Of a stretch of 64,000 bases of DNA, positions 129 to 24,614 are shown piece after piece. The translations under genes were made by a program, and so were the position numbers. Positions within the stretch are counted from its first letter, which is position 1. Every line of letters begins with the position of its first letter. Source of the DNA: a bacterium (GTDB lineage Bacteria; Patescibacteriota; Dojkabacteria; SC72); the NCBI GenBank assembly GCA_021463465.1, contig JAJTYH010000002.1, positions 73,799 through 137,798 of the forward strand, in the 5' to 3' direction. The notes beneath the pieces are model-generated. The model had not been told where the DNA came from. It made no database searches and saw only the letters and a list, made by a program, of their open reading frames with translations.

Positions 129-1088
129 ATGATATATTATATCTACAATCTGGAATTCCCACAGAATAGAGATGAAATACTAGTTGGAGGTTATAAAGTA
201 CAAAAACTTCCTAATTACAATGACCATAGGAAAAAGCTCATGTGGCTAACAAATGTTTCAGACATGGACGGAGAAGTGCATCGAAACACTGGTATCAATG
301 AGCCTACAGCAATTGTTCATGGAATTGGATTGAAGTCCAAATACTTTAAAGGAAAAACACTACTCGAGGACATTTGTTTGCTTCTTACCATATTCACAGG
401 ACGAAATGTTTTTGCTCTAGATCAAAATACATATTTTAGGCAGCTTCCTATACTTGCCGATCCAAGGCTTCACCATTATGGGGGAGTATTGCATTGTTCA
501 CTAAGATACCAAGAAGAAGCTTATAACGAAGAGACCCTCGAAGCAATTACTGAAGCTGAACGAAACAACGATAATCTACTTTGGAATGTGCGCGAAATCG
601 GATTCGAAACAGAAATCAACAAAATACTGCGTCTAATTTATTCAAAAAGGTGGAGAAAAAAATATAAAGGAGGGTATTTTATCTTATTAATGAGACAGGC
701 ACTTAAAAGGATGGATTTAGAACCAACATTTCAACTGTGTTGGACTATTTGGGAACATATATACGCCGTACTAAACCCAAAAGGACTAACACAAGATAAA
801 TTGGAGAAAGTAGCTGGGAAAGATAAAATATCATATCTACTTAAAGAATACTTTAATATCAATTTAAGAAGTGAATCACATAGAGAACTCACTCGAATAA
901 ATAAAGCGAGAAATTCACTTGTACATTTTGGAAGAATTACAAACAATACTAATTATAAGGAAATTGACTTATTTATACGGATGACAGAGTTTTTAGTTGC
1001 TAAAACATTAAAGTTGAATCCATCGAACGTATTTAACACGAATGAAAAAATGTATGACTTTCTAAGACTCAGAGTCCAAAGTAATTAA
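129..1088 (+). CDS. hypothetical protein with C-terminal HEPN-like Rx4H motif (ARNSLVH); possible Abi-type abortive-infection protein
   Basis: 319-aa ORF; C-terminal R-x4-H motif typical of HEPN RNases; located in island with R-M cargo; no other recognisable motifs. Confidence 0.45.
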   Translation: MIYYIYNLEFPQNRDEILVGGYKVQKLPNYNDHRKKLMWLTNVSDMDGEVHRNTGINEPTAIVHGIGLKSKYFKGKTLLEDICLLLTIFTGRNVFALDQNTYFRQLPILADPRLHHYGGVLHCSLRYQEEAYNEETLEAITEAERNNDNLLWNVREIGFETEINKILRLIYSKRWRKKYKGGYFILLMRQALKRMDLEPTFQLCWTIWEHIYAVLNPKGLTQDKLEKVAGKDKISYLLKEYFNINLRSESHRELTRINKARNSLVHFGRITNNTNYKEIDLFIRMTEFLVAKTLKLNPSNVFNTNEKMYDFLRLRVQSN

Positions 1089-1108
1089 GGTATACCCATC
1101 TAAAAGAT

Positions 1109-1774
1109 TTAGGAGGATTTTAGTAGATTACCCAGTACCACTAAACGCTTCTCAGCATTTGGCATATCTAAATCCAGTGATTCTACTTCTTGTAGTAATT
1201 TCCTGAAATAAAGAGATACAGAGAAAAGCTCTAACTCACTAAATTCTGAGGGTGTGTAAGCTAAGTTCATATCCTCGACTTTGATTTTTGAGAATGGAGT
1301 AACTCCATCTGTAGATATTGGCATCCAGTAAATAAGCAGTGGCAGAAGAGTGTATTCAGAGTATATCTTAGGTTTATTCATTTTCTCCAAAACCTTTTCA
1401 GCCTGATAGAATGAGCCTTTGATCTGGTTTTTAAGGTTTATCTCCACTACTGCACTAACCATACTATCTTCAGCTAAAGCGGGTAGTCTTATGCCATTCT
1501 TAGCTGTAGAAGACCAGTTCTTAATTTCAGTCTGGTAAATAATCTTATTATCGTTATCGACAATCCATCTATCAAGCCGATGTCCCCGCAATGTACCCTT
1601 GCTAACAGGCAAATCTAACACGATACAATTGGTATTTTTATTTTTTGAATTAATGTAATGTGCAAATGAAGAGGCACATAAATCCTCCCCAATTACTCCA
1701 ATAATTGCCGAAGCGTGACCAACTTCAGTAGGATCATCAAAGAACTTTAAACTTTCTAATATATTTATCCTCAT
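1109..1774 (-). CDS. hypothetical protein (divergent from C5-MTase; possible nuclease/R-M accessory)
   Basis: 221-aa ORF convergent with upstream gene and divergent from MTase gene at 1870; no diagnostic motif recognised. Confidence 0.45.
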   Translation of the reverse strand: MRINILESLKFFDDPTEVGHASAIIGVIGEDLCASSFAHYINSKNKNTNCIVLDLPVSKGTLRGHRLDRWIVDNDNKIIYQTEIKNWSSTAKNGIRLPALAEDSMVSAVVEINLKNQIKGSFYQAEKVLEKMNKPKIYSEYTLLPLLIYWMPISTDGVTPFSKIKVEDMNLAYTPSEFSELELFSVSLYFRKLLQEVESLDLDMPNAEKRLVVLGNLLKSS

Positions 1775-1869: not shown

Positions 1870-3150
1870 GTGAAAACCATGAATAAAAATCAGATTAATA
1901 TAATAGACTTGTTCGCTGGAGTAGGTGGCTTCAGAGTCGCTTTCCAAAAAGCCAACAAGAATCTCAAAGGAGAAATTTTCAAAGTAGTTTGGGGTAACCA
2001 GTGGGAGCCAGGAAAAAAAGTACAATATGCGGCTGAAATATATAAACGACAGTTTGGAGAAGCAGGATTTGTTAATGAAGATATCGCTAAAGTAAAAACA
2101 GAAGATATTCCAAATCACGATTTAATGGTAGGAGGTTTCCCATGCCAAGACTATTCAGTCGCAACAACAAAGAAACTTTCGGGAGGAATTGAAGGGAAAA
2201 AAGGAGTTCTCTGGTGGCAAATAGAAAGAATAATTAGAGAGAAGGGTAAAGATAGTCCAGAGTTTTTACTTTTCGAGAATGTAGATAGACTAATCAGCTC
2301 ACCTGCCAAACAAAGAGGAAGAGATTTTGCAATAATGCTTGCGTGTCTTGATATGCTTGGATATATGGTTGAATGGAGAGTTATAGATGCAAGTGAATAC
2401 GGATTTCCGCAAAGAAGAAAAAGAATATATTTTGTAGGATATAAAAAGAATTCCAAAATATATAAATCTTTTAAAGGTAATCATGAAGACTGGTTACTAA
2501 ATACAGGAACTTTCGCGAAAGGATTCCCTTCAAAAAGGAAGGAAGGGACAGTAACGGTTATAGAGTTAATAAAAGATAGAACTAAGGAATACTCAAAAGT
2601 CATTAAAGACGTAAGTGACAATTTCAACAAAGGTGGCAAGACAACACCTTTCAGAAAAACAGGAGTGATTCTTGACGGTAAAATCTATACGATGGATGTA
2701 ATACCAAACTACAAAGGAAAGAAAACCACGCTTGGCGATATACTTATAGACGAAAAAGATGTCCCTCAAGAATACTTCATACCAAAGGAAGATTTAGAGA
2801 AGTGGAAATATCTTAAGGGAGCCAAAAGAGAAAAGAGAATCCAGAAAGCAACAGGCTTTGAATATAATTACAGTGAAGGAGCTATAACCTATCCAGATGC
2901 ATTAGAAAGGCCATCAAGGACAATTATTACGGGAGAGGGAGGCAAAGGCCCATCTAGGTTCAAACATGTAGTTAAAACACTTTCTGGAAGACTAAGACGA
3001 CTTACACCAATGGAACTTGAAAGATTGGACATGTTCCCAGATAATCATACCGACGGTTATTCACCTCAAACTAGAGCATTCTTAATGGGAAATGCTTTAG
3101 TGGTTGGTGTAATTCAAAAAATTGCAGAATCACTTTATGAGAAAATGTAA
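1870..3150 (+). CDS. DNA (cytosine-5)-methyltransferase
   Basis: Motif I IDLFAGVGGFRVAF (FxGxGG), motif IV GGFPCQDYS (PCQ), motif VI ENV (FENVDRL); 426 aa. Confidence 0.9.
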   Translation: MKTMNKNQINIIDLFAGVGGFRVAFQKANKNLKGEIFKVVWGNQWEPGKKVQYAAEIYKRQFGEAGFVNEDIAKVKTEDIPNHDLMVGGFPCQDYSVATTKKLSGGIEGKKGVLWWQIERIIREKGKDSPEFLLFENVDRLISSPAKQRGRDFAIMLACLDMLGYMVEWRVIDASEYGFPQRRKRIYFVGYKKNSKIYKSFKGNHEDWLLNTGTFAKGFPSKRKEGTVTVIELIKDRTKEYSKVIKDVSDNFNKGGKTTPFRKTGVILDGKIYTMDVIPNYKGKKTTLGDILIDEKDVPQEYFIPKEDLEKWKYLKGAKREKRIQKATGFEYNYSEGAITYPDALERPSRTIITGEGGKGPSRFKHVVKTLSGRLRRLTPMELERLDMFPDNHTDGYSPQTRAFLMGNALVVGVIQKIAESLYEKM

Positions 3151-4489
3151 ATTTGGGGAGTATGACGAAAAGTCAAAAGAATCAATCTTTAAGTATGCGA
3201 CTTTACTAAAAGATAAATCACTTCTAGATTTATATCCTGAAGAAATAAAAAAACTTCCAGAGAAATCAACGGACTATAAAGGGAAAGGGGATATTGGAAC
3301 TATGGTCGAGTATCTACATTTCAATTACCAACCCAATAGCAATGCGGAACCAGATTTTAAAGATGCTAATCTTGAACTAAAAACAACTCCATTAAAAGTA
3401 TCAAACTAAAAATATGTTTCGAAGGAAAGGCTTGTTTTAGGTATGATTGACTATTTCCAAATAACAAAAGAGCAGTTTGAAAAATCTTCATTCCTAAAAA
3501 AGAATGCTTCCTTACTATTACTTTTTTATCTTTATGAGAAAGGACAAGACCTAGCTCAAATCTTCAAACTTATTAAATTGTGGGATATACCACAGTCTGA
3601 CCTTAAGATTATTAAACAGGATTGGACAACGATTTACACCAAGATAAAGAGCGGATTAGCACATGAACTATCTGGCGGTGATACATTATACCTTGAGGCA
3701 GCCAGAAAAGGAGCAGGAGGCGATAAAGATTTCACAAGACAGCCATATTCAAATGAAAAAGCAAAACGACGAGCATTTGCATTTAAGAGTAAGTATGTAA
3801 ACCAAATTATTGACTCTGATAAGGACTTCATTTCTGCTATTGATGATACATTCGAACTGTCAAAACAAACTTTTGAAGAGTATGTCATTGAGAAATTTAA
3901 ACCATTTGTCGGAATGTCTATAAATGAGATATCTGATAAATTTGGACTTAGTTACTCAGCAAAGAAAAAAGATATTGTTGCAGCAATTTCGAGAGCAATT
4001 TTGGGAGTTCCAGAACAAAGTAGAATAGCAGAGTTTGAAAAAGCGGATATTCTAATGAAGACAGTTACTCTTGAGAATAACGGAACACTAAAGGAGAGTA
4101 TGTCATTCCAAAGGATTGATTACTATGAAATAGTGAATGAAGAAGAGTGGGAGGAATCTGCTTTCTACCAAAGAGTTATAAATAGAAAGTTCTTCCTTGT
4201 AGTATTTAAAAAGGACGAGAAAGGAACTAAGCGACTATTTAAAGTAATGTTCTGGAGCATGCCAGAGAGATTAAGACAGCTAGCAGAACAGTATTGGAAC
4301 GATGTAAAAGAGAAAACCGAAGCAGGCGATATGGAAAACTTTTGGAAATTAAAAGACAAGAAAGGTTTTCATGTAAGACCAAAAGCACGAGATTCAAAGG
4401 ATACGACAACATTAAGGGATGGTACTGCGGCTCCAAAGTTAGGTTACTGGATTAACTCGGAAGAGATTAAGAAAGTAATATTAGGCTAA
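3122..4489 (+). pseudogene. Sau3AI/MutH-like PD-(D/E)xK restriction endonuclease interrupted by in-frame TAA (3407..3409); ORFs 3122..3409 and 3443..4489 are in the same frame
   Basis: N-terminal fragment carries EPDFKD...NLELKTTPL (PD...ELK catalytic motif as in MutH/Sau3AI ELKT); second ORF continues in identical frame after a single TAA; sits immediately downstream of C5-MTase. Confidence 0.5.
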
Positions 4490-4620: not shown

Positions 4621-5385
4621 ATGGTTAAAACAGAATTAATTAAGATAGTTTATTTTGATGAATCGTCTGCAATCGACTATTTGGAAATTTCAAACAAAGG
4701 GAGGCAAATAAGCGAAAAAACAACAGCATCAAGTAAACAGGGGAAAATAGGAGCGACGGCTGGCGCGAGTATTGGAACGAATAGTTTACTTACAAAGATA
4801 ATCAGCCCACTCCTGAGTCTAGATGTAAGTGCGGAAAGTTCCACTAAACTGGCCATGATTGGAGAATCTGTAGTAAAAACATCAATATCTAATACCCTTC
4901 TATCCGATTATATCGAGAAAGCTGAAAAAGATCGCCGATTAACAATCCTCACTGATTATACAATTTCCACAACAACAGAATCTTTTTCCTACATTAAAAT
5001 GGCTGCTCCTTATTTCAAATTATTTAATCTACCTGAAAGTAAGATTAATATTGATGCGCTAGATCAAATATTAGAAGCCGGGAAAGGATACTACGAGTTA
5101 GTGGCAAACAATATTTCTCAAAACGATACAAAAATACTTAGATTTAATATTCGGGCATTCAGAAATAACTATCATCTAGTTGACCTCACAAAGATGAAAA
5201 TTAAGATATACGGTGTCAAAGTAGGGGAAGCGACTTTAGAATCAGTAAAAGCTGGTCAAGAGTTTAATGTTGCTCCAGCCGAAGTCCCAACATTAGCTGA
5301 CATCGTAAATGGTGAGAATCAATCATCAAAAGCATTCGACCTAATAGATGTTGTACTTGTTGGTGTAAGCCATGGAGAAAATTAA
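4621..5385 (+). CDS. hypothetical protein, upstream partner of Clp-like ATPase (overlaps it by 14 nt)
   Basis: 254-aa ORF translationally coupled to 5372..6505; no recognisable motif. Confidence 0.5.
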   Translation: MVKTELIKIVYFDESSAIDYLEISNKGRQISEKTTASSKQGKIGATAGASIGTNSLLTKIISPLLSLDVSAESSTKLAMIGESVVKTSISNTLLSDYIEKAEKDRRLTILTDYTISTTTESFSYIKMAAPYFKLFNLPESKINIDALDQILEAGKGYYELVANNISQNDTKILRFNIRAFRNNYHLVDLTKMKIKIYGVKVGEATLESVKAGQEFNVAPAEVPTLADIVNGENQSSKAFDLIDVVLVGVSHGEN

Positions 5386-6505
5386 AACAATAAAAATTTA
5401 TATTGGCTCCAAGGGTGGATTTACTGAATTCGTAAAAAAACATCTTGGTGAAAGTCCATACAAAGATCTTACAGGGCTACTATACATTCATGACGCGTAC
5501 TCTCGAACAATTACCGTTAAACAAGATAATAGCGATGATAAAACAGACATATCTCACCAAATTCCAACCTTTAATAACCTGGTAATAAATGCTGATGAAT
5601 ATAGTGGTGTTAATGAGCTGCTTTTGTTTAATATTGAGCGTTACATAGAGCTATTTCAAATCGAAACTCTCATAGTTCATAATCCCCCAAAGCTCTTAGA
5701 AAGCAATTTAAGGAGGGCCTATAAAGAGAAGATAGAGACTGAAACTCAAAAATATAAGGAATTTAGCAGTCGAGATTTAACTAAATTGTTATCTCGTTTG
5801 AAAGACGCTGTATTAGGTCAAGAAACCGCAATTCAAAAACTTGTTACTTCAATTTATACACTTACCAGAGATAAGGAAGCCACCAAACCAATAGTATTAC
5901 TCCTTTACGGCCCTTCTGGAGTTGGGAAAACAGAATCCGCTAAAATAATTGCGGACTCATTGGGTGAAAACCTTTTCAGAAAGCAGCTTTCTATGTTTCA
6001 GAACAGCGAATTTATTACTTACTTATTTGGCGGGAAACATTATGAGAAAAGCCTTGCCAGAGATCTTGTTGAAAGAGAAAGCAACGTTATTCTTTTAGAT
6101 GAATTCGACAAGGCTAACCTGGTAGCTCATTCTGCGTTCTATCAGCTATTTGACGAAGGTGTTTTTGAGGATAAGAATTATAACGTAAACTTAACACGAT
6201 CGATAATACTATGTACATCAAACTTTACTAGTACAGAGACAATCCGAAAAGAGTTAGGTGAGCCAATTTTCTCTAGATTCGATGGTCACATTGAATACAA
6301 GCCACTTGATTCTGCATCAATGAAACTGATAATAGAAAAAATAATTGATGAGGAGTTACTAAAAATCAAAGATAATGATTATGAGAAAACGGAAATTTTA
6401 AGTATGTTTGAGCCCTATCTAACAAAACTGTCAAATGCAAGACTTGCTAAAAATTTAGTCAGAGAATACTTTTCGACCGAACTTTTCAAAAAAATAACTT
6501 CATAA
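5372..6505 (+). CDS. AAA+ ATPase, ClpA/ClpB D2-domain-like
   Basis: Walker A LLLYGPSGVGKTESAKIIA, sensor/Walker B region ILLDEFDKANLVAHSAFYQLFDEG resembling Clp D2 LLDEIEKAH...LLQVLDDG; 377 aa, no N-domain or D1. Confidence 0.7.
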   Translation: MEKIKTIKIYIGSKGGFTEFVKKHLGESPYKDLTGLLYIHDAYSRTITVKQDNSDDKTDISHQIPTFNNLVINADEYSGVNELLLFNIERYIELFQIETLIVHNPPKLLESNLRRAYKEKIETETQKYKEFSSRDLTKLLSRLKDAVLGQETAIQKLVTSIYTLTRDKEATKPIVLLLYGPSGVGKTESAKIIADSLGENLFRKQLSMFQNSEFITYLFGGKHYEKSLARDLVERESNVILLDEFDKANLVAHSAFYQLFDEGVFEDKNYNVNLTRSIILCTSNFTSTETIRKELGEPIFSRFDGHIEYKPLDSASMKLIIEKIIDEELLKIKDNDYEKTEILSMFEPYLTKLSNARLAKNLVREYFSTELFKKITS

Positions 6506-6521: not shown

Positions 6522-7517
6522 CTAAGAGGCAATGGGCAGGGATTCGCCTTCTTCATGAACATAAAGAGATCTTACAGAGAGGTATTCTAAGTAAATCTCA
6601 TTATTTATCAGTGAGATATTTTTCTTAATTAATGAATCATAAAATGCTTTAATATCAGGATCATCACCAATACTATGAACCTGATCATTCTCAATATAAG
6701 CTTTCAATAAAGTATTTAATTGTGTGGATGTGAATTCTTCAATAGCTGAAAGCCTCGCGACGCATTCGTGGGTATATTTGAACATTCCCGAAAGTCTCAA
6801 ATTTTCAATAAGAAAGTCTTTCTCAAGCTCAGCGGCTAGTTTTACATCAGGGTAATGAGCCCTGAAGAAATCAGATATTCTAGAATAAAAATGTATCTCC
6901 GATTTCTTATCACGATTCCATTCGTTTAACAGGTACTGTGAGAAGCCTACGGTCTTAACAGGAGATAGATAATCCCCATCTTCGGTAATAAAGTACAAAT
7001 CCTGATTCGCAGGAACACCTTCCTTTAACGCTTCCCAGTTAACAGCATCACCATACGAGCCATTTTTACCGGGCGGATTGCCTAGTTTTACACGAATTTG
7101 AGCTCTATGATATATGTTATTATTTGTAGGAATTACCTTTGAGACTTTGAATAACTCCTTGATTATTGAATCTGCGTTGAAACCATTTGTCTTTACCTTC
7201 TCATATGTCTCGTTTAAAACTTCATTCTGGGCTTCCTCATACTGTTTAACGGAATCTTTTAACTTTTTGTAAAGCATTGGATTTTCACGACATATCTGGG
7301 GAAACCTTTTCGGTATTGGATTGCTTACCCAAGTTTTCAATGAATCTGCAATTTTCTCTTCACGATTACGATTGAACTCGTCAATAACCTGATTTGGAAC
7401 AAATAGTGTCATCTTCCGATTCTTGATTGCAACTATTAGTTTTTTCAATTCCTCCAAATCTTCATCACTATAATGAAAGAATGTAAGATAAACGTTTGTA
7501 TCTATAAATATATTCAT
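6522..7517 (-). CDS. PIN-like N-terminal domain protein
   Basis: N-terminus MNIFIDTNVYL...DEF resembles PIN-domain acidic core; 331 aa with uncharacterised C-terminal region. Confidence 0.4.
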   Translation of the reverse strand: MNIFIDTNVYLTFFHYSDEDLEELKKLIVAIKNRKMTLFVPNQVIDEFNRNREEKIADSLKTWVSNPIPKRFPQICRENPMLYKKLKDSVKQYEEAQNEVLNETYEKVKTNGFNADSIIKELFKVSKVIPTNNNIYHRAQIRVKLGNPPGKNGSYGDAVNWEALKEGVPANQDLYFITEDGDYLSPVKTVGFSQYLLNEWNRDKKSEIHFYSRISDFFRAHYPDVKLAAELEKDFLIENLRLSGMFKYTHECVARLSAIEEFTSTQLNTLLKAYIENDQVHSIGDDPDIKAFYDSLIKKNISLINNEIYLEYLSVRSLYVHEEGESLPIAS

Positions 7518-7556: not shown

Positions 7557-7710
7557 CGCATTACCTAAACCTAGTAATAGGCATGGTGATAAAAATTGAA
7601 TCCACGACGAATAACGCGGCTCTCCGGCCGGTCCATTCGTCGTGGTCTATATCTCGAAAGGGATATGGGGGTTCCGAAAGGAACTCGCTGGTTCGGAGGG
7701 CCACTTTTGT
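7557..7710 (+). ncRNA. structured leader/ncRNA, copy 1 (three GNRA-tetraloop hairpins plus 11-bp stem); homolog of 21740..21890 on minus strand
   Basis: Promoter TTAACA(7523-7528)-17nt-TATAAT(7546-7551); hairpins CCTA-GTAA-TAGG, CCACGACGAAT/ATTCGTCGTGG (7602-7612/7635-7645), ATATCTC-GAAA-GGGATAT (7649-7666), GGTTCC-GAAA-GGAACT (7670-7685), tail CGCTGGTTCGGAGGGCCAC; same architecture with compensatory changes in second copy. Confidence 0.6.
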
Positions 7711-8464: not shown

Positions 8465-9403
8465 ATGAAATCAAAAATAGTGGGTTCAATATTTGCTCAC
8501 GCCAGTGGAGATTACCTTGGTATGCCCGTTGAATTTGCTTCTACACCCGCACAGGTACAGGATTTCTTCGGTAGTGAAGGCATAAGACCTATTGATACTA
8601 ATAGCAGGGGAACGAAACCAGCTGGTTACTATACTGATGACACGGCTATGATGCTGTGTTTAGCCCAGAGTCTCATAGACAAAGGATTCGATACCTTAGA
8701 TCAATTCCAGAAATATAAGAAGTGGGCTTTTGAAGGATATATGTCTGCTGATGGAAAGACTTCTTTTGGAATAGGACAGAATACATTAAGGAAACTAATG
8801 TGGCAGAAGCCGGAAGAAATACCTACAGCAATTCATAGCAACGATAAAGAAGGTGGAAACGGAGCATTAATGAGATGCCTTCCTATTGGACTCATATACC
8901 ATAACAATACTGATGATGTAGTTGATAAGAGTATAAAATCAGCACTTGTTACGCACAACAATACCATTGCGGTTTGGACTACAGTTGTATTCAATACACT
9001 CATAACATACTGCCTGCATAATATTGAGAAAGAGGGGTTTGTATCAAAACTCGCAACAGAGCCCTACTATAAAAATATCCCCGCTGAAATAAAGAAAGTG
9101 CTGGATAGACTAGGTAATCTAAAAACGGAGGAGCTCAAGACCAGTGGATACTCACTTAATACCTTGGAGGTCGCTCTGCATTCATTTTTCAGCTCTGATA
9201 GTCTGGAAGCTGCTATCAAGGCATCAATTGGTTTTGGAGGCGATACAGATACTCAAGGGGCGGTCACAGGAGGTCTTGCTGGAGCATATTACGGTTATGA
9301 AGCAATTCCAAAAGAATGGACAGCTCACTTATTAAATAAAGAATTGATGCAAGAGATCTCAGATAAGATAGCCTCGATATCACTTAGCACACCTAATACA
9401 TAG
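8465..9403 (+). CDS. ADP-ribosylglycohydrolase family protein
   Basis: N-terminal GSIFAHASGDYLGMPVEF and GYYTDDTAMMLCLAQSL motifs characteristic of ARH/DraG family; 312 aa. Confidence 0.75.
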   Translation: MKSKIVGSIFAHASGDYLGMPVEFASTPAQVQDFFGSEGIRPIDTNSRGTKPAGYYTDDTAMMLCLAQSLIDKGFDTLDQFQKYKKWAFEGYMSADGKTSFGIGQNTLRKLMWQKPEEIPTAIHSNDKEGGNGALMRCLPIGLIYHNNTDDVVDKSIKSALVTHNNTIAVWTTVVFNTLITYCLHNIEKEGFVSKLATEPYYKNIPAEIKKVLDRLGNLKTEELKTSGYSLNTLEVALHSFFSSDSLEAAIKASIGFGGDTDTQGAVTGGLAGAYYGYEAIPKEWTAHLLNKELMQEISDKIASISLSTPNT

Positions 9404-13847: not shown

Positions 13848-15458
13848 ATGGAACTAAAAAGAAAAGCTTCCAAATATATTCTTTATGCACGTAAATCAAC
13901 TGAAGGAGAAGACCGACAACAGGCTTCTATAGAATCTCAAATTGCTGAAATGCAAAAGATCGCTTTGGAATACGGTTTGAATATTGTAGAAGTCCTTTCG
14001 GAAAGCCGATCCGGATATAAACTTGGAAGACCTGAATTTCAACGCATGATAGGTATGCTTGATAATGGAGAAGCAGATGGAATTCTTTGTTGGAAACTTT
14101 CAAGATTGTCTAGAAATGCCGATGATGGAGGGAGGATAATAGGAATGTTGCAGAGAGGAGAAATAAAGCATATCAAGACTTACGATGGTGGTTGGTATCC
14201 CGAAGATGACCACATGATGATATTCCTAGAGTTAGGTATAAACAACAAGTTCAGCAAGGATCTCGGAACGGATACTAAGCGTGGTTTAAGGGCAAAAGCT
14301 GAACGAGGATGGTACCCATGCGCAACGTTACCTTTAGGGTATAAACACCATCCAGAAGAGGTTTTAAAGAAACATTCTGACATGGAGATCATACCTGATG
14401 AGCCCATGTTCAGTATAATAAAGGCCATGCTCAAAGAATTAGCGGAGAAAAAATTTTCTCCGAAGCAAGTCTTTGATCATGCTATCGCTAACGGCTTCCG
14501 CACACGTAAAGGTGGCATACCTTCTTTCTCTGTGTTCTATCGTATAGCGGAACATCCTTTCTATTATGGAGAATACAAATTCACAATTGACGGAGAGGAG
14601 CAAGTGTTTCAAGGAAAGCATAAACCAATGATAACAAGGGCTGAATACGAGTCTATACAGAAGGTTAAAGGTCGCGGTCACATTGTAAAACAGCAAAAGT
14701 ATTTCCACTCATTCACTGGACTAATGAAATGTGGAGAGTGTGGGTGTTTCATTACCGGAGATCCCACTAGACTGAAGACAAACAAGAAAGGGGAAGTTCG
14801 GAAGTTTACATACTATCATTGCACAAAAAAGAAAGGGCCATGTTCGCAACCTCATATCACACAAGAAGACCTGATAGAAACATTTGATAAAGTACTTAGC
14901 ATGATTCATATCCCCGAGGAATTAGTTGATTATGCATTAGAGGAAATACAAAAAGAGCATCAGGAGAAGAAGCTTGCAAGAATGGGTGTACTAAAGAATA
15001 ACCAAAAGGAGTATGAAGGACTAAGTAAAAAGCTAGATTTACTTACAGAGAAAAACTTAAACGGAGTGATAGATGATGAGGAATACAAAAGAAAAAGAGA
15101 TCAGATTAAATCCCATATGTCACTAGTACAATCACTAATCAACACCAATGATAGTTCAAGAGATGAATGGCTGATGAGAGTAAAGAAGAGGTTATCGTTC
15201 GCAGAAAGGGCATGTAGAACATTCAGAACAGGGTCTCCGGAGCTAAAGAAGGACATCATGATGGAGTTACAGTCTCAAATCATCGTTAAGGATAAGAGTA
15301 TAAAGCTAGATCTAGACCCATTACTAAGCCTCTTTTTCAAGAAGCCTAATCAACACGATCTTGAAAAAATATTGGTTCGAACCAAAACAAATGAAGTAGG
15401 GACAAACATATTCGAAATTTTCTTTTCCAACAATTCCATCTGGGGTGGAAGATGTTGA
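13848..15458 (+). CDS. large serine recombinase (island integrase 1)
   Basis: N-terminal resolvase domain YARKSTEGEDRQQASIESQ (catalytic Ser), recombinase domain, zinc ribbon CGECGC...C, coiled-coil; 536 aa; 3' end of gene carries tggggtggaagatg repeat of tRNA-His 3' end. Confidence 0.9.
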   Translation: MELKRKASKYILYARKSTEGEDRQQASIESQIAEMQKIALEYGLNIVEVLSESRSGYKLGRPEFQRMIGMLDNGEADGILCWKLSRLSRNADDGGRIIGMLQRGEIKHIKTYDGGWYPEDDHMMIFLELGINNKFSKDLGTDTKRGLRAKAERGWYPCATLPLGYKHHPEEVLKKHSDMEIIPDEPMFSIIKAMLKELAEKKFSPKQVFDHAIANGFRTRKGGIPSFSVFYRIAEHPFYYGEYKFTIDGEEQVFQGKHKPMITRAEYESIQKVKGRGHIVKQQKYFHSFTGLMKCGECGCFITGDPTRLKTNKKGEVRKFTYYHCTKKKGPCSQPHITQEDLIETFDKVLSMIHIPEELVDYALEEIQKEHQEKKLARMGVLKNNQKEYEGLSKKLDLLTEKNLNGVIDDEEYKRKRDQIKSHMSLVQSLINTNDSSRDEWLMRVKKRLSFAERACRTFRTGSPELKKDIMMELQSQIIVKDKSIKLDLDPLLSLFFKKPNQHDLEKILVRTKTNEVGTNIFEIFFSNNSIWGGRC

Positions 15459-15631
15459 GTTTTACAAACATTCAACGCAAACTACTCTTAGTGAAATGAT
15501 AAACCTTCAAAATTTACTTAACAAGGCGATTAAAGAATTCACAGAGATTGTAGATAGGCATAAAAACGATAATAATTCTTCTAATGCTATTAGTTACATT
15601 CTATGATATTAGGGGAGGTTATTACAAACAA

Positions 15632-16021
15632 TTAAGAGACATCAGTAGTAATATCCTTGTCAGAATACCTTACTAACCGTCCTGGAGAAAATTGTGATAC
15701 TCCTGTAGTAACAGTATCTCCAAAAAACAGCCTCTTATTCAACTCAGAAGGTATCGGTACCTGGCCAGTAAACATACCATCGGTAATTCCAAGTTTACGG
15801 TAATATGCTTCAACGGAAGAAGTTCCAGTATCTAGGTCTCTCACTAGTTCCGATAAATGAGACCTTTGTGGGTTATTGAGAATATCTTCTTTAATATCGC
15901 AATATACTTTATAAAAATCTTCGAATAAATTTTTGCAACTTATAAACAACTCTTTATTTCTAGTAAACTTCAAGTGCAAACCTGGATTATTAATATGAAC
16001 TAAGATACCTTTTTTAGTCAA
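15632..16021 (-). CDS. hypothetical protein (last gene of NTase operon)
   Basis: 129-aa ORF, co-directional with NTase cluster. Confidence 0.4.
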   Translation of the reverse strand: MTKKGILVHINNPGLHLKFTRNKELFISCKNLFEDFYKVYCDIKEDILNNPQRSHLSELVRDLDTGTSSVEAYYRKLGITDGMFTGQVPIPSELNKRLFFGDTVTTGVSQFSPGRLVRYSDKDITTDVS

Positions 16022-16096
16022 GAAGTAATGTGCAGTTCCATTCCTTATTGCAAGACGAATTGTTTTACCACATTCATCAGTGTATATCTCTTTATA

Positions 16097-16312
16097 TTAC
16101 TTTAAGTTCTGCCAAAATGCATAATAAGCATCATCACCTTCTTTGCCGGACATAATCATTCCGATTAATTCCATTCCAGAGACAATAGTTTGTAGACAAG
16201 GATATGCGACTCTACCGTATCTTTTCGCGGGAATCGAAAAAATTGATTTGATGTCTTCAATAAGATATTTGTCTACTTTATCAAAAAAAGCTGATAAATC
16301 TGAATTATCCAT
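16097..16312 (-). CDS. hypothetical small protein
   Basis: 71-aa ORF overlapping upstream gene by 8 nt. Confidence 0.35.
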   Translation of the reverse strand: MDNSDLSAFFDKVDKYLIEDIKSIFSIPAKRYGRVAYPCLQTIVSGMELIGMIMSGKEGDDAYYAFWQNLK

Positions 16313-17099
16313 TTTTCTTCAGTGATTTTATAAATATTATTGTCTCAACCGTAAAGAATAAAACTAATCGTGCTTCATTAAGACTAAATTCTGTTTTTTC
16401 AGCATCACTTCCTTGGTGTTTGACACCCTTGTTATTATAAAAGACAAAATTAGTTGCGAATTCTTGAATCATGGCAATAAGTCTTTCTGAAACTTGATGT
16501 GAAGCAAGATAGTTTTCTAATCTTGATTTTGCACCATCTTGCTTTGCGACATTCTTTTCTAGACTTGAATCGTAAATAGTTTCTCTTAAAGCATTTTCAA
16601 AAGCTAGCCGAGAATCATCAATAACATTTCTTAAATATTTGCCTTCGGACAGTTTATCGTAAGCGGAAATAATTAGTTCTTCAACATTCTTCACATCTTT
16701 TAAAAGGGGGAGGGAAGTAGATAGTCTCTCCTTATCAATTGTTTGTTCGCTTTCCTCTTGGACTGCCTTTTTGAAACTTTCTAACCATCTACTAACCTGA
16801 TAGAAACTCTGTTTTAAGTATTCAGGGTCAATATGGTCAGAGACCACATCACCCGGCCTTGGCACGTGATGCCATACTGTTGGCATACCTGGAATCCCAT
16901 GCCCTTTTTCAAGGATAAGATTCAAAATTTCGTTATCGTCACCAATCAATACTTCTAGATTTGATACAAACTCTTGTGTTTCATCCTTTAATCTTTTCAA
17001 GTGTTCCTCTTTTACGACATTATTATTTATTAGCTTCTGATATCTAAGAAGCTTGCTATCGAATATATTAATTTCTTTACTTATATCTCCTATCACCAT
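16305..17099 (-). CDS. hypothetical protein (NTase operon component)
   Basis: 264-aa ORF, tightly packed downstream of 2TM protein; no recognised domain. Confidence 0.5.
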   Translation of the reverse strand: MVIGDISKEINIFDSKLLRYQKLINNNVVKEEHLKRLKDETQEFVSNLEVLIGDDNEILNLILEKGHGIPGMPTVWHHVPRPGDVVSDHIDPEYLKQSFYQVSRWLESFKKAVQEESEQTIDKERLSTSLPLLKDVKNVEELIISAYDKLSEGKYLRNVIDDSRLAFENALRETIYDSSLEKNVAKQDGAKSRLENYLASHQVSERLIAMIQEFATNFVFYNNKGVKHQGSDAEKTEFSLNEARLVLFFTVETIIFIKSLKKNG

Positions 17100-17107
17100 A
17101 AGTATAA

Positions 17108-17719
17108 TTATTCGAAAATATCCATTATGTTAATTGTATCTTTCTCAAGCCTTTCAAATTTAATTACCCCAACAGTCCTCCTATTCTCATCATTAGTGTA
17201 ATGTCCTTCAAGCAGGTTGGAGTTTATTACTTTCAAATAACTAAAACCTTCATGCATTCCACCGTTTGTACTATTTTGTAAAGTGCTATCTTTCGGCCTA
17301 TTGATGTATTTGTACAAAAGATACCATCTACCATTTTGTTCTTGTTCCATTAAGCAAATAGTGCTATCTGAACACGAATTAGCAAACTCAGTTGAAACAA
17401 ATAATTTTAAATAATTCTGCTTGATTTCAGCAACACCTTCATACTCATTGGCACGATTATCATAGGAAGATTTCACAGTAACTTTCCATTTTCCCGAAAG
17501 ACAGGGTTTAAATCTCAGACCAAAAACATATGCAATCGTTGTAACAAACTTCGGGTAATCCAACTTCCAAAGAAAATTATTCCACAACGCAACCAGGAAG
17601 AGAATAATTACAACAACAGCCGAAGTAGGAATAACCTTATTGTCGAAAAATGAATTCACACCATGAATAATTAGGGTAATTGTAATCAAAACAGATATAG
17701 TTTTCTTATAATCATTCAT
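17108..17719 (-). CDS. 2-TM membrane effector-like protein (SLATT/Cap15-like architecture)
   Basis: Two N-terminal TM helices (VLITITLIIHGV..., AVVVIILFLVALW) followed by ~140-aa soluble domain; 6 nt downstream of nucleotidyltransferase gene. Confidence 0.5.
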   Translation of the reverse strand: MNDYKKTISVLITITLIIHGVNSFFDNKVIPTSAVVVIILFLVALWNNFLWKLDYPKFVTTIAYVFGLRFKPCLSGKWKVTVKSSYDNRANEYEGVAEIKQNYLKLFVSTEFANSCSDSTICLMEQEQNGRWYLLYKYINRPKDSTLQNSTNGGMHEGFSYLKVINSNLLEGHYTNDENRRTVGVIKFERLEKDTINIMDIFE

Positions 17720-17725
17720 CGAAGT

Positions 17726-18475
17726 TTACCTTTCAATATACTCTCCAGCTTTATTTAAATATGTTATAGCATCGTTTAAATCCCAGTTATTCGTAAATAG
17801 TGAATCTTGTTCATTTGCACACTGAAAACCACCAATACGATTAGACTTCACAGCATCAAACAAAAACTGCATTGTTACTATTGTAGAATTAAATAAATCT
17901 CCATCAAAACATGGGCTAGAACAATTGTAAATTAGATTCTCTATGAAGTATGACGGGGCTAATCCTTTCTGCAAGTCTCCAGTTTCTTCAAGTTCTCGTT
18001 TAATATTCTTGAATATCCTCACTACTTTTTTGAATACTCCATCTGTATCAATATTTTTTGACTCACAGTTTTTCAAGTGAAGTTTTGGATAATTAATTAT
18101 TTGTGTATTCTCGTCTGTATCATAGAATTTGATACCAGGAACAAAGTCTTGGTCGCTTAGTGATAGAAACCTTTTGTAGAACCGGAAAGAAAAACAAGGA
18201 ACAACATCAGCATTAACCTTTCCATAACTTTCGGGAATCCTCAAACATTTAGCATGAGGTTCAATGTTTTTAAATGTTTTTACCAAGGCTAATAACAAAG
18301 CCTCTTTATATTCTTTAAACGTAATCAAAGCATCCGAAAAAGATTGTTCATACTTAACCTTTTCCTCATCAGATAATTGCGTAATATCACGGCCAAAGAC
18401 TGACTGAAGTTCAACCACAATATCAACATCACTATTATTAGAGATGTTTGTATGGTTTGCGTATGACCCTTGCAA
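17726..18475 (-). CDS. pol-beta superfamily nucleotidyltransferase, SMODS/CD-NTase-like (true N-terminus probably extends upstream to ~18649)
   Basis: GS-x12-DVD (GSYANHTNISNNSDVDIV) and third acidic residue in NADVVPC (DhhP); in-frame upstream region encodes expected helix ...FSLSNFTYDVYLQ but lacks ATG/GTG/TTG. Confidence 0.6.
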   Translation of the reverse strand: MQGSYANHTNISNNSDVDIVVELQSVFGRDITQLSDEEKVKYEQSFSDALITFKEYKEALLLALVKTFKNIEPHAKCLRIPESYGKVNADVVPCFSFRFYKRFLSLSDQDFVPGIKFYDTDENTQIINYPKLHLKNCESKNIDTDGVFKKVVRIFKNIKRELEETGDLQKGLAPSYFIENLIYNCSSPCFDGDLFNSTIVTMQFLFDAVKSNRIGGFQCANEQDSLFTNNWDLNDAITYLNKAGEYIER

Positions 18476-18792
18476 GTATACGTCATATGTAAAATTTGAT
18501 AGGCTGAATTTTTTCTTAAGTTCCTCAATATCTAAATTCGAATCTAATGCCTCAATTACTTTATCTTTTGTAGATATAATCTTCGCTGTTTCCTTTTCAT
18601 CAGGTGGACTAGCAAATTGAGTGAGTTGGTTTAAAGAAATCCTGTTTATTTATACTTAAATTACCAGCTAATTTTACCACTTTTCGATTATTTTTTAAGT
18701 AGATATCTCTATAAATCGTTAATATTTAAAACTAATTATGAGTTAATTTTCAGACTTGAAATAAAAGTCTTTTTAGCAAATAATGTAAGTAT

Positions 18793-19863
18793 ATGAGACA
18801 AGAAGGCCAATTCAAATTTATAGACTTATTTGCTGGTATAGGAGGTATTAGGATTGCATTTGAAAACGCAGGTGGTGTGTGTGTGTTTTCCAGCGAAATC
18901 AATGAAGCTTGTCAAAAGACTTATTATGCAAATTTCGGAGAGACACCACAAGGTGACATTACACTTATTAATCCCAAAGATATTCCGGACCATGATATAT
19001 TAACAGCCGGATTCCCTTGCCAGCCTTTCTCGATAAGCGGTAAAAGACTCGGTTTTGAAGATACTAGGGGAACATTGTTCTTTTATATCTTAAACATTGT
19101 TAAAACTAAAAAACCAAAAGTTGTTTTATTAGAGAACGTAAAGCATTTAGTACATCATGATAGAGGTAATACAATTAAGGTGATTCTTAGAAGCTTAGAG
19201 GAACTTGGTTACAATGTGTCATGGAAGGTTCTGAATGCGAAAGATTTTGGGCTTGCACAGAATAGAGAACGAATTGTTATTGTCGCCAGCAAAGCAAATA
19301 AGTTCAATTTCAATTTAATGCCGTCAAGAAACGAGAAAGTCTTTATTAAAGATATCTTGGAAAAAGATGGTGATTTTGAATATCTTAAACCGGAAGAATA
19401 TACAATTCTTGATGAGAAGTACTGGAAACGTCAGATTAGCGGACTTATCTTTTGTGGATACAGAAACAAGAAAATAAGACAAAATGGAGTAAGAGAAAAC
19501 ACAATACACCTCTCCAGAGTTCATAAGCAACCAAATAGAATTTATTACATAGACGGGACACACCCGACAATTCCATCTCAAGAGACATCTGGTAGATTCT
19601 GGATATACGATGGGAAAGTAGTTCGTAAACTAACAATAACAGAGTGTTTCAGATTGATGGGGTTCCCTGACGAGTATAAGAAAGTTTCTGCAACAGGTGA
19701 ATTATATAAACAAATAGGTAATTCAGTACCAATAAACTTGATAAATTCCGTAGCCAAAAGTATTGTGAATCAAGAGTTACTCAATGCAAATGATATAAAC
19801 ACAAAACATATTCCGGAACTGTCCAAACAATTGAATTTTACATCACTTAATTATGGAGAATAA
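18793..19863 (+). CDS. DNA (cytosine-5)-methyltransferase
   Basis: FAGIGGIRIAF (motif I), GFPCQPFS (motif IV), ENVKHL (motif VI); 356 aa. Confidence 0.9.
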   Translation: MRQEGQFKFIDLFAGIGGIRIAFENAGGVCVFSSEINEACQKTYYANFGETPQGDITLINPKDIPDHDILTAGFPCQPFSISGKRLGFEDTRGTLFFYILNIVKTKKPKVVLLENVKHLVHHDRGNTIKVILRSLEELGYNVSWKVLNAKDFGLAQNRERIVIVASKANKFNFNLMPSRNEKVFIKDILEKDGDFEYLKPEEYTILDEKYWKRQISGLIFCGYRNKKIRQNGVRENTIHLSRVHKQPNRIYYIDGTHPTIPSQETSGRFWIYDGKVVRKLTITECFRLMGFPDEYKKVSATGELYKQIGNSVPINLINSVAKSIVNQELLNANDINTKHIPELSKQLNFTSLNYGE

Positions 19864-20962
19864 CGATATTAGAAACTATCTCGAGGAAATTTATGGTAAA
19901 GCTGAATCGAATTATAAAAATTCAATTCTAAAAAACTATGATTCAATTGACCCAAAGATTAGGGAGTATCTGGAGTTAATAGTTTCAAGTGTGGAAGATT
20001 TTCTAGGTGTATTAAATGTAACAGTTACAAGTTTAACCTACAAATCTTTAAACCCCAATCAAGATATTCGAAACCACCAAGCACAACTTGAAAAGGGTTA
20101 CTCTGGCAGGAGTTTTGACACACGATATATTGCACCATTTCTGAAATCGAAAGGACTAAAATCTATGAAGGAGTCGGGTTGGCTTACCCGTTCCTTGGAA
20201 CAGGCATCTCCTTATACCTTGGATTACAGGGGTAAAATCAGAGACTTAAACGTTAAAGAGGCCTTTTTAAAGACTCTGCATCATGTAGAAGAGGAAAATG
20301 GAAATTCTTTACTTATGCTTGAATATCTTTTACTTCTCCTTATCAAACAGCGTGAAGACAGCAAAGTAGAAATAGAACATATTAGCAACCCTGACCTGCA
20401 GATATCAAAAATACTAGAAATGCTTAGTATTCACTTTGAACAAGCAACTTCAAATGGGAGGGCAAGATTACCCGTACTTGCAATCCACTCTATTTATCAA
20501 CTATTAGTTAATGAATTAGAAAGGTATGATGAGAAAGAGTTACAGGAACTAAGTTCGCATACATCTGCAGATTTAAGACACGGCGATATCGGAGATGTTC
20601 AAGTAAATTATGCTGATGGGACTCCCTTTGAGGCCGTTGAAGTAAAGTACGGCATAAAAATAACAGAATCACTCATAATCGATGCATACTCGAAAATTAA
20701 GCAAACAAAAGCAAAAAGATACTATATGTTATCAACGGTAGAAAGTTCCAAAAAAGAACTAGAGGAAATTATTGCAAAGATTAAAGATGAACACGGTTGC
20801 CAAATAATAGTGAATGGGCTACTAAAAACAATAGAATATTATCTTAGACTCATAAGTAATCCAGAACTTTTTGTGAACATTTACACTGACCTTGTAACAA
20901 GTGACAAGGTAATTAAAACCGAACACAAAGTTCTTTGGAAAAAACTTCTACAAAATTTGTAA
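19853..20962 (+). CDS. putative type II restriction endonuclease (PD-(D/E)xK) cognate to MTase at 18793
   Basis: Start overlaps MTase stop by 11 nt; HGDIGDV...FEAVEVKYG fits D-x(n)-(D/E)xK nuclease motif; 369 aa. Confidence 0.5.
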   Translation: MENNDIRNYLEEIYGKAESNYKNSILKNYDSIDPKIREYLELIVSSVEDFLGVLNVTVTSLTYKSLNPNQDIRNHQAQLEKGYSGRSFDTRYIAPFLKSKGLKSMKESGWLTRSLEQASPYTLDYRGKIRDLNVKEAFLKTLHHVEEENGNSLLMLEYLLLLLIKQREDSKVEIEHISNPDLQISKILEMLSIHFEQATSNGRARLPVLAIHSIYQLLVNELERYDEKELQELSSHTSADLRHGDIGDVQVNYADGTPFEAVEVKYGIKITESLIIDAYSKIKQTKAKRYYMLSTVESSKKELEEIIAKIKDEHGCQIIVNGLLKTIEYYLRLISNPELFVNIYTDLVTSDKVIKTEHKVLWKKLLQNL

Positions 20963-21739: not shown

Positions 21740-21890
21740 CAAAGGTGGCCTCCCGAACCAAGCGATAAGTCCTTTCGAACCTATCCTGCACTCTTTCGAG
21801 TACAGACCCAAAGCACGAGTGCCGGTCAGGAGACCGCTTTTACGTGCTTTGGGTTTTATATCCATGCCTATTTCTAGGTTTAGGAGTTGT
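21740..21890 (-). ncRNA. structured leader/ncRNA, copy 2 (homolog of 7557..7710)
   Basis: On minus strand: TGTATAAT promoter (plus 21896-21901), CCTA-GAAA-TAGG, 11-bp stem CCCAAAGCACG/CGTGCTTTGGG (plus 21807-21817/21843-21853), GTACTC-GAAA-GAGTGC, AGGTTC-GAAA-GGACTT, tail CGCTTGGTTCGGGAGGCCAC; compensatory base changes relative to copy 1. Confidence 0.6.
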
Positions 21891-22483: not shown

Positions 22484-22858
22484 ATGCAACAGTTTAAGCC
22501 AAATGAACTACAACTTAAATTGCTAGAAACGATGCTTGACACAAGTGTTTCCTCGAATATCACGGAGATATGTAGTGTCGCAGGAATTGACAGAAGCACA
22601 TATTACCGATGGATGAAAGACCCAAGCTTTGTATATTGGTTTAGTAAGGCCTGGAAAGAGTCTGTAATGCCCCTAGAACCTTTATTAGACAAAATAGCGA
22701 TAAACAATGCCTCTAAGGATTTTAGATACTACAAACTGATTCAGGAGAAGTACTTTATTAAAGCAAAAGCATCTCCTTTTCTCATAAATGTAAATAGTGC
22801 AGATAGGTTACTAGATGCAGTTGATAAGTTAGAAGCGTTATATGCGAATGAAGAATAA
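22484..22858 (+). CDS. small HTH DNA-binding protein (possible excisionase/recombination directionality factor or terminase-small-subunit-like)
   Basis: ITEICSVAGIDRSTYYRWMKD helix-turn-helix; immediately upstream of serine recombinase. Confidence 0.4.
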   Translation: MQQFKPNELQLKLLETMLDTSVSSNITEICSVAGIDRSTYYRWMKDPSFVYWFSKAWKESVMPLEPLLDKIAINNASKDFRYYKLIQEKYFIKAKASPFLINVNSADRLLDAVDKLEALYANEE

Positions 22859-24558
22859 TATATCTCCACGGATGAGTGAATACATTGAATCCTACATTCG
22901 AACTCATCAAAGAGAATCAATTGATGTAACAAAAGAAGAGAAAAAGTATGTTTTATATTTAAGAAAGTCCTCGAAAGATAAAGACAAACAGGTGCAATCA
23001 ATTAAGGACCAGCGAAAAGATTGTTACCAATACGCAAAAAGAGAAAAGATAAGGATTGAAAGAATATTTGAAGAAAGCCAATCAGCAATGATTTCTGAAG
23101 GGAGGGATGCTTTTAAAGAAATGATGGAAGAGATAAAGAAAGGAACATACAACTCAATTCTAGCTTGGCACCCTGATAGGCTGGCGAGGAATATGAAGGA
23201 TGCTGGTGAGATTATAGATTTATTAGATAAAAAGATTCTCATGGATTTAAAATTCCCTTCGTACACTTTCGTAAATAACGGTAGTGGTAAGTTGGCATTA
23301 GGAGTGCAATTTGTCTTGGCAAAAAATTACTCTGACAATCTATCAGTCGTAACTAAAAGAGGTAATCATAAAAGGTTTGAAGATGGCGAGGGAATAAGAA
23401 GCAATAAATACGGATATAAATTAGTTCGAGTTGGTGACGCAAAAAAAATATAGACCAGATGGAAAGAACTTTGAACTTATTCAAAAAGGATTTCAAATGG
23501 CTTTAAACGGGCGACCTGTTGCGGAAATTGCCGACTTCATAAATCGAGAGGGGCTAACCTTAGAAGTAAACGTTAAAAAAGACAATGAAAAGAAAGGCCT
23601 AAAAAAGGGTAAACAGCACATTCATATTACATTACTTCCCCAATCTGTATCTAAATTACTTGCGAATCCCTTCTTTGCCGGAATCCATGTAGTAGGGGCT
23701 AAGGTCTACGATTATAGAGTACTTGATACAGGATTTTTGCCAATCATTTCCGAGGATGACTTTATAAAATTGAGAATTAAACTAGAGTCAAACTCTAACT
23801 TTGTGAAAAGAAGAACGGTAGACAATTCCAGGTTCCTTCCGTTAAAAGAGATGATTACTTGCAATTACTGCAAGGGTCCTATGTATGCTGGAGTAACAGG
23901 TAACGGCAAAGGCAATTATTACCTTCGATACAGATGTGAAACGGAGGACTGTCGGCGAAGAGATAAGGCTTATAAAAAGAAGTACAAACTAAGGGAAAGT
24001 GTACGTGGTGTTCTTATTATTGACTTCGTATTCGAATATTTTAAAAACCTTGATGTGCCAAGGGATTTATACGAGAACTGGGTAACTGAAATAAAGAAAA
24101 TGCGAAAGAAATTCCTTAAAGGCTATTCAACTGAGATGCGAAAAATAGAGTGGCAAATAAAAAAATTAGAAGACGAGATAAGTGTATTGACGCTTACACT
24201 AGCTGATACAACAAAGAAAGCTGTAAGTAGAAGTCTAGAAGGAAAGATTAATGAAAATGCTGATTTAATCGAAGACTTAAGAGATAGAGAACAAGATTTA
24301 AAAAAACAGAGAGATAATTATGAAGTGATTTCTGATAAGACTTTATGGTCGTACGAGAGTTTTACAAACTTCCTGAAAAACGTTGCTAATATAGTAAAAA
24401 GGAAGAGAAGTATGGAACTCCTTGATAAAGTTGTTCGATTGGCCTTTACAAACATTGTGATAGGTAATGGGAAAGTGGTTTCATATAAACTAAAACCGGC
24501 ATTCGAAGCTATCGAAAAACTGCGTCCAATAAACCATGGGGTGGAAGATGGGACTTGA
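22842..24558 (+). CDS. large serine recombinase (island integrase 2), apparent frameshift at A8 tract 23433..23440 (ORFs 22842..23453 + 23431..24558)
   Basis: N-terminal resolvase domain YLRKSSKDKDKQVQSIKDQ (catalytic Ser) in first ORF; recombinase/zinc-ribbon (CNYCKG...C) and coiled-coil in second; 3' end overlaps tRNA-His 3' end. Confidence 0.75.
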
Positions 24559-24614
24559 ACCCACAACCCCCTGTGCCACAGACAGGTGCTCTAACCGATT
24601 GAGCTACATCCACC
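24537..24614 (-). tRNA. tRNA-His (GTG) with encoded G-1 and CCA
   Basis: Cloverleaf: G-1, acceptor GTGGATG/CTTCCAC, anticodon loop CTGTGGC (GUG), T-arm GTGGGTTCAAGTCCCAT, discriminator C + CCA. Confidence 0.85.

Follow-up and report, generated by a model that had tools for sequence, protein, structure and literature searches.

Within the 64,000-nucleotide (nt) stretch of contig JAJTYH010000002.1 analyzed here (GenBank assembly GCA_021463465.1, positions 73,799 to 137,798; hereafter the window), from an uncultured bacterium of the Dojkabacteria, a compact block of minus-strand genes begins with a nucleotidyltransferase (NTase) and a protein with two predicted transmembrane (TM) helices. A preliminary description, made from the letters alone, had taken this block to be a five-gene operon and proposed it as a minimal, or new, signaling defense system resembling CBASS, the antiphage signaling system based on cyclic oligonucleotides. 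Our analysis instead resolves the block into four genes forming two modules. Module 1 (17108-18649, minus strand) is, judged by its sequence matches, a type I CBASS made up of two genes, of the CdnE-Cap15 kind that is already known, and module 2 (15632-17099, minus strand) is a rare two-gene cassette, relatives of which accompany none of 80 related CdnE loci. We consider it very likely that the two are independent defense modules stacked head to tail in a defense island, that they are probably cotranscribed, and that each carries one point lesion.

The window's list of open reading frames (ORFs) contains five ORFs in this block, all on the minus strand and spanning 15632-18475, as had been described. 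They are flanked by a serine recombinase (13848-15458, plus strand) on one side and by a divergent C5 DNA methyltransferase (18793-19863) on the other. Gaps of 6 nt and 8 nt separate the cyclase gene from cap15 and cap15 from gene 3, respectively, and gene 3 overlaps the following 71-amino-acid (aa) ORF by 8 nt. The three ORFs downstream of cap15 (264, 71, and 129 aa) had been reported to lie 4 to 8 nt apart, which is true of the 8-nt gap and the 8-nt overlap but not of the last two, which are 75 nt apart and belong to a single gene broken by a TAA codon. A scan of the locus for promoters and terminators gave a signal no better than that of shuffled sequence, and megablast of positions 15400-18800 against plasmids and phages returned no match.

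The first gene of the block, cdnE (17726-18649, minus strand), is a frame of 307 codons plus stop. Its product matched the PADLOC CBASS cyclase model PDLC00788 with an E value of 2.3e-78, and the model PDLC00801 aligned aa 6-306 of the full frame to profile positions 6-293 of 295. The NCBIfam model NF053871, "anti-phage nucleotidyltransferase," gave 232 bits, which is under the model cutoff of 350. When a profile of the cyclase family was compared with the PDB, RmCdnE (6e0k) was matched with an E value of 2.9e-76; a single-sequence phmmer comparison with RmCdnE gave 1e-34, and the five best PDB sequence matches were all CdnE enzymes, designated Rm (6e0k), Em, Ef (7x4c), Cl, and Lp (7x4f). From the strongest of these sequence matches, we assign the protein to clade E of the CD-NTases (nucleotidyltransferases like cGAS and DncV), and the PADLOC, NCBIfam, and PDB results together bear out the earlier recognition of a CD-NTase/SMODS enzyme. 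The motifs reported for it, GS-x12-DVD and DVVP, are both present, the latter as ADVVP, but the spacing of the former is GS-x11-DVD. The family alignment shows conservation of the catalytic residues G61-S62, D74-x-D76, and D148, and the window cyclase retains all of the family's invariant residues (Q60, S62, D74, D76, D148, N186, and W289). A collection of 5.8 billion proteins contained 634 relatives. The closest, which come mostly from uncultured Patescibacteria-type metagenome-assembled genomes, are proteins of 310 to 313 aa with approximately 50% identity, whose alignments begin at residue 1 and span 98% of the 307-codon frame.

The catalytic residues of the cyclase are intact, and its gene has no canonical start codon. 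The frame is open from 18649, and no ATG, GTG, or TTG occurs between the upstream TAA (18652-18650) and an internal TTG at 18475; the 5' end (18638-18652, minus strand) reads TAA-ATA-AAC-AGG-ATT, so that the stop is followed by near-cognate codons only. The ORF caller started a 249-aa product at the internal TTG (18473-18475, minus strand), and the preliminary description accordingly placed the gene at 17726-18475. Alignment does not support this model, as the TTG is a conserved internal Leu codon: it corresponds to L59, which is almost invariant in the VYLQGSY strand and precedes the catalytic Gly-Ser by two residues. The first 58 codons of the extended frame align with the N-termini of the 310- to 313-aa homologues. 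Because both the homologues and the profile align over this extended N-terminus, we place the true 5' end of the gene at about 18649 and conclude that the canonical start is missing. The homologues begin with M-x-I-x-E-x-Q-L (an M-x-I or M-I start), and at the same point the window has the stop followed by I-N-R-I-S-L-N-Q-L. Two codons, ATA (18649-18647) and AGG (18643-18641), are each one substitution away from ATG. These observations suggest either that a recent mutation of ATG, to ATA or to AGG, has silenced the cyclase or that the cyclase is translated only weakly from a near-cognate codon. Initiation at the internal TTG would yield a product that has lost strand beta-1 and the N-terminal helix and is expected to be inactive.

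The 203-aa effector encoded by the second gene, cap15 (17108-17719, minus strand), has two TM helices at its N-terminus, and its receptor domain is the Cap15 beta-barrel for cyclic dinucleotides, in keeping with the Cap15-like layout proposed for it earlier. The protein matched Pfam Cap15_CD_rec over aa 72-190 (E value of 2.1e-18), the PADLOC 2TM effector models (9e-30), and the Cap15 beta-barrel structure 7n34 in the PDB (3.7e-8), and its hydrophobic segments lie at aa 7-25 and 29-51 (Kyte-Doolittle, 19-residue windows above 1.6). No Cap2/Cap3, HORMA/TRIP13, or other CBASS ancillary genes were detected when genes 3 and 4, along with the flanking genes, were scanned with PADLOC, as the preliminary description had also stated for the three ORFs downstream of cap15. 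Operons of CdnE and Cap15 have been described as type I CBASS, and in these enzymes the lid-1 Asn (RmCdnE N166) is a determinant of the uracil acceptor and an (R/Q)xW motif is a determinant of the pyrimidine donor (PMC10442399). In the window cyclase, N186 corresponds to the lid-1 Asn N166 of RmCdnE and W289 to the C-terminal Trp W281 of EfCdnE, and the retention of both makes a uracil-containing cyclic dinucleotide its likely product. Asn, rather than Arg or Gln, stands two residues ahead of W289, and the exact product and donor specificity are not readable from Asn-x-Trp. When expressed, the cyclase would sense infection and synthesize a cyclic dinucleotide, and Cap15 would bind this signal through its beta-barrel, oligomerize, and disrupt the inner membrane such that the infection is aborted.

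Module 2 starts with gene 3 (16305-17099, minus strand), which encodes a 264-aa all-alpha protein. The N-terminal half of this protein is lineage specific, and its C-terminal part (aa ~115-262) is a helical bundle of the PDC-S32 family. None of the ORFs downstream of cap15 had been credited with a recognizable domain. While this holds for gene 4, the 264-aa protein matches PADLOC PDC-S32 (PDLC04998) with an E value of 1.4e-11, the match being confined to its C-terminal domain (aa 114-236; profile positions 96-213 of 237). Word-index searches with genes 3 and 4 returned only the query itself and one homologue each, and an exhaustive HMMER search of a 1.84-billion-protein library added one full-length relative of gene 3 and 35 distant ones. 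Full-length gene 3 therein has three representatives, a tiny clade to which its N-terminal half (aa 1-115) is restricted; the 35 distant relatives share the C-terminal half (aa ~115-262) and have diverse N-termini. Where gene contexts of distant PDC-S32 relatives were inspected, the contigs were too short to be informative. PDC-S32 is matched by all 38 members of the family alignment, one of which is gene 3, and the family has an invariant signature of R157, D161, R164, E168, E181, K227, and H228. One PDC-S32 relative also contains an AbiJ_NTD4 domain. The AlphaFold model of gene 3 is all-helical, with a predicted local distance difference test score (pLDDT) of 88, and a Foldseek comparison of this model with the PDB gave nothing significant. 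The canonical Rx4-6H motif is absent from gene 3, and N-x3-K-H is found in its place. A literature search for "PDC-S32" or "DS-2" returned nothing. We tentatively regard the modeled protein as HEPN-like, possibly a divergent bundle of that type.

Gene 4 (15632-16312, minus strand) is an orphan of approximately 226 codons that contains an internal nonsense codon and is either a pseudogene or truncated. The 71-aa and 129-aa ORFs, which had been listed as separate genes, occupy one frame in which a single TAA (16097-16099, minus strand) is the only break. When joined, the frame of 226 codons aligns end to end, with 50% identity, with the intact 234-aa protein P0003 of contig L001, which is encoded downstream of P0002, the only close homologue of gene 3 (48% identity), on contigs L001 and L002. 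The TAA aligns with a Gln codon (CAG) of the L001 homologue, and the six residues that follow, YKEIYT, are identical. As in the cyclase, the start proposed for the second fragment (TTG at 16021) is a conserved internal Leu, here of the sequence HYFLTK. An R-N-G-[T/I]-A-H motif of the Rx4H type is conserved in all three gene 4 homologues and falls between the TAA and this TTG, the next possible start, such that neither fragment contains it. Searches of Pfam, PADLOC, NCBIfam, PHROGs, PDB sequences (E values up to 10), plasmids and phages (tblastn), and viral contigs gave no match to gene 4, and hhalign found no relation between gene 4 and the gene 3 family. An alternative genetic code in which TAA is read as sense was considered and rejected, as this TAA is the only such case and the remaining long ORFs of the window end at ordinary stops. 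A CAG/CAA>TAA nonsense mutation, located upstream of the motif, thus cuts gene 4 short, and the cassette is most likely dead as a consequence.

Each module therefore carries one disabling-looking point lesion, at the cyclase start and within gene 4, and both had been overlooked in the earlier gene models. Over 20.8 kb, two independent Logan assemblies from different runs (SRR17318674 and SRR17318675) match the window with 100% identity, both lesions included, and the lesions are therefore not assembly noise.

In order to compare gene contexts, 80 related CdnE loci were fetched from species-representative genomes with an alignment-based scan; a scan with the single NTase sequence gave nothing. 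In 42 of the 80 loci the ORF immediately downstream of the cyclase is Cap15-like, and profiles of gene 3 and gene 4 matched in none of the 80 within 5 kb on either side. In the close relatives for which gene calls were available (L005, L006, and L007), the CdnE-Cap15 pair is followed by unrelated genes, and in L007 the pair stands alone. Conversely, contigs L001 and L002 have neither NTase nor Cap15 but do carry gene 3 with an intact gene 4, their upstream genes being divergent and unrelated; L008 carries gene 3 without gene 4, followed by a convergent unrelated gene; and in L010 a gene 4 homologue (846-1163, plus strand; 49% identity, RNGTAH kept) sits behind a 191-aa ORF (~150-760, plus strand; ~31% GC) that is unrelated to gene 3. 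The arrangement in L010 suggests that the Rx4H-motif protein pairs with variable upstream partners. Because none of the 80 CdnE loci carries a relative of module 2, and because module 2 or its single genes occur without CBASS, these comparisons of sequence and gene order argue that the modules are independent of one another and that the CdnE-Cap15 pair is self-contained.

Two of these relatives place the pair within restriction-modification (R-M) genes. In L005 (3914-9455) the genes on either side of it are hsdS and hsdR, which belong to a type I R-M operon, and in L006 (3094-9192) it is flanked by an N6/N4 methyltransferase and a ResIII/RE_endonuc (Res-like helicase-nuclease) protein.

Some observations weigh against the interpretation of two independent and recently damaged modules. 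The tight packing of the four genes would, taken alone, fit one functionally coupled operon, and on the side of module 2 there are few observations behind independence, since it is known from only three independent contexts, all of them short contigs. The structure model of gene 4 is of low confidence (pLDDT of 52). Both lesioned frames are otherwise intact and well conserved, which means either that the lesions are very recent or that expression continues through AUA/AUU initiation or stop readthrough. The latter leads to the alternative that both modules are functional as they stand, with low-level synthesis of CdnE from ATA or ATT limiting abortive-infection toxicity and with the two halves of gene 4 acting as separate polypeptides or being joined by readthrough of the TAA. 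In its favor, the cdnE frame is unbroken over 307 codons with all invariant family residues kept, conservation in gene 4 runs on across the stop codon, and initiation at near-cognate AUA/AUU codons is known in bacteria, at a low level. However, all 24 other ORF starts printed from the window are ATG, with no obvious use of Shine-Dalgarno sequences, and neither gene 4 product would contain the RNG[T/I]AH motif. A second serine recombinase nearby also looks split, which fits general decay of the island. We regard intact function of both modules as unlikely, and favor two modules that each carry a probably disabling lesion.

That the whole block is a single four- or five-gene system, in which the PDC-S32-like and orphan proteins serve as ancillary sensors or regulators of CdnE-Cap15 in a new CBASS variant, is much less probable still. 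Such a system would explain the shared orientation and the tight spacing or overlap of the genes, and no Cap2/Cap3/HORMA/TRIP13 match accounts for genes 3 and 4. It is contradicted by the absence of relatives of genes 3 and 4 within 5 kb in all 80 CdnE loci, by the unrelated genes that follow the closest CdnE-Cap15 pairs, and by the occurrence of the gene 3-gene 4 pair without CBASS in L001/L002 and of each gene alone elsewhere, and the juxtaposition is seen in one lineage only. The spacing in the window fits cotranscription of stacked cassettes, as is common in defense islands, and does not in itself demonstrate functional coupling. Finally, it is hardly credible that the NTase is part of an MNT-HEPN or AbiEii toxin-antitoxin pair, with HEPN-like gene 3 as its partner and no role in signaling, and we rejected this identity on the family assignments of the NTase and its Cap15 neighbor: the NTase is a full-size 307-aa CD-NTase (E values of 2.3e-78 in PADLOC and 2.9e-76 for the profile against a CdnE structure) rather than of the MNT/AbiEii type, a two-TM effector with a Cap15 cyclic-dinucleotide receptor domain sits between it and gene 3, and relatives of gene 3 exist without any NTase.

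With the block read as two independent modules, module 2 may be a HEPN-type RNase toxin or abortive-infection module. It is conceivable, although we would not presume it, that genes 3 and 4 constitute an undescribed two-gene abortive-infection or toxin cassette, pairing a PDC-S32-type HEPN-like helical protein with an orphan Rx4H protein, which is intact in L001/L002, is so rare that either of its genes is carried by only three or four lineages, and has been freshly inactivated in the window.

The surroundings of the block confirm the earlier placement in a serine-recombinase island between two R-M modules, with C5 methyltransferase/restriction endonuclease pairs at 1870-4489 and 18793-20962 and the recombinase at 13848-15458. 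The type II R-M system at 1870-4489 (plus strand) comprises a C5 methyltransferase (PADLOC MTase_II, E value of 5e-155) and a MutH/Sau3AI-like restriction endonuclease (REase_II, 1.2e-63). It is followed by a complete-looking Dodola system (4621-6505, plus strand), with DolA (DUF6414) and DolB (AAA ATPase) matching PADLOC models with E values of 1.1e-64 and 5.7e-119, respectively; by a PIN_12/PIN_8-domain protein (6522-7517, minus strand) with a C-terminal match to PADLOC PDC-S34 (5.5e-13); and, in the same island, by an ADP-ribosylglycohydrolase (8465-9403, plus strand; 4.8e-64). On the other side of the block, the C5 DNA methyltransferase (18793-19863, plus strand; Pfam DNA_methylase, 1.6e-100) is overlapped at its end by 11 nt by a 369-aa ORF (19853-20962, plus strand) that had no match in Pfam, PADLOC, or NCBIfam and presumably encodes the restriction endonuclease partner of this methyltransferase, a member of a family not yet described. 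The region is thus a genuine defense island, containing two type II R-M systems, Dodola, CBASS, and the PDC-S32-like cassette. The second serine recombinase (22842-24558, plus strand) consists of a 203-aa Resolvase ORF and a 375-aa Recombinase ORF that overlap by 23 nt, probably as the result of a frameshift, and abuts a tRNA gene (24540-24613, minus strand). It may represent a decayed integrase at an att site, and its split state is consistent with ongoing decay of the island.

Two matches to LOOT RNA (Rfam RF03000) were also observed in this region, at 7562-7686 (plus strand) and 21764-21886 (minus strand), scoring 59.8 and 71.1 bits, above the gathering threshold. The copies are inverted and approximately 70% identical over 177 nt, and roughly bracket a Toprim protein, the serine recombinase, CBASS, the PDC-S32-like cassette, and the second R-M block.

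The value of these results is mainly corrective, in that what looked like a new five-gene signaling system is a standard type I CBASS of CdnE and Cap15 beside an unrelated neighbor. Both lesioned genes are misrepresented in ORF lists, the cyclase by being started at an internal Leu codon and the last gene by being split at a nonsense codon. The locus usefully illustrates how systems are stacked in defense islands and how, in an uncultured bacterium with a small genome, costly abortive-infection genes begin to decay. Potential for discovery lies only in the very rare gene 3-gene 4 cassette, the intact copy of which belongs to another organism (L001/L002).

Compared with known systems, module 2 is linked to the HEPN abortive-infection and toxin proteins (AbiJ, AbiV, LsoA/RnlA, and MNT-HEPN toxins) by the AbiJ_NTD4 domain in one PDC-S32 relative and the Rx4-6H-type motif in gene 4; it differs from them in the N-x3-K-H of gene 3, and no Pfam or NCBIfam HEPN profile was matched by gene 3 or gene 4. 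With PADLOC PDC-S32, an untested single-gene defense candidate, the C-terminal half of gene 3 (aa 114-236) shares both the profile and the invariant signature, but in two of its three contexts gene 3 has the orphan gene 4 behind it and so is not strictly a single-gene system. Module 1 resembles the known CdnE-Cap15 type I CBASS of the EfCdnE, ClCdnE, and LpCdnE operons. Its cyclase is only moderately identical to the solved CdnE enzymes, has no canonical start codon, and has Asn instead of Arg or Gln two residues before the C-terminal Trp. However, the gene order, cyclase then Cap15, is the same; the cyclase is of similar size (~307 aa) and has the same GS...DxD...D residues and the same lid-1 Asn; the effector likewise combines two TM helices with a Cap15_CD_rec beta-barrel; and the system is likewise found in a defense island and free of Cap2/Cap3 and HORMA/TRIP13.

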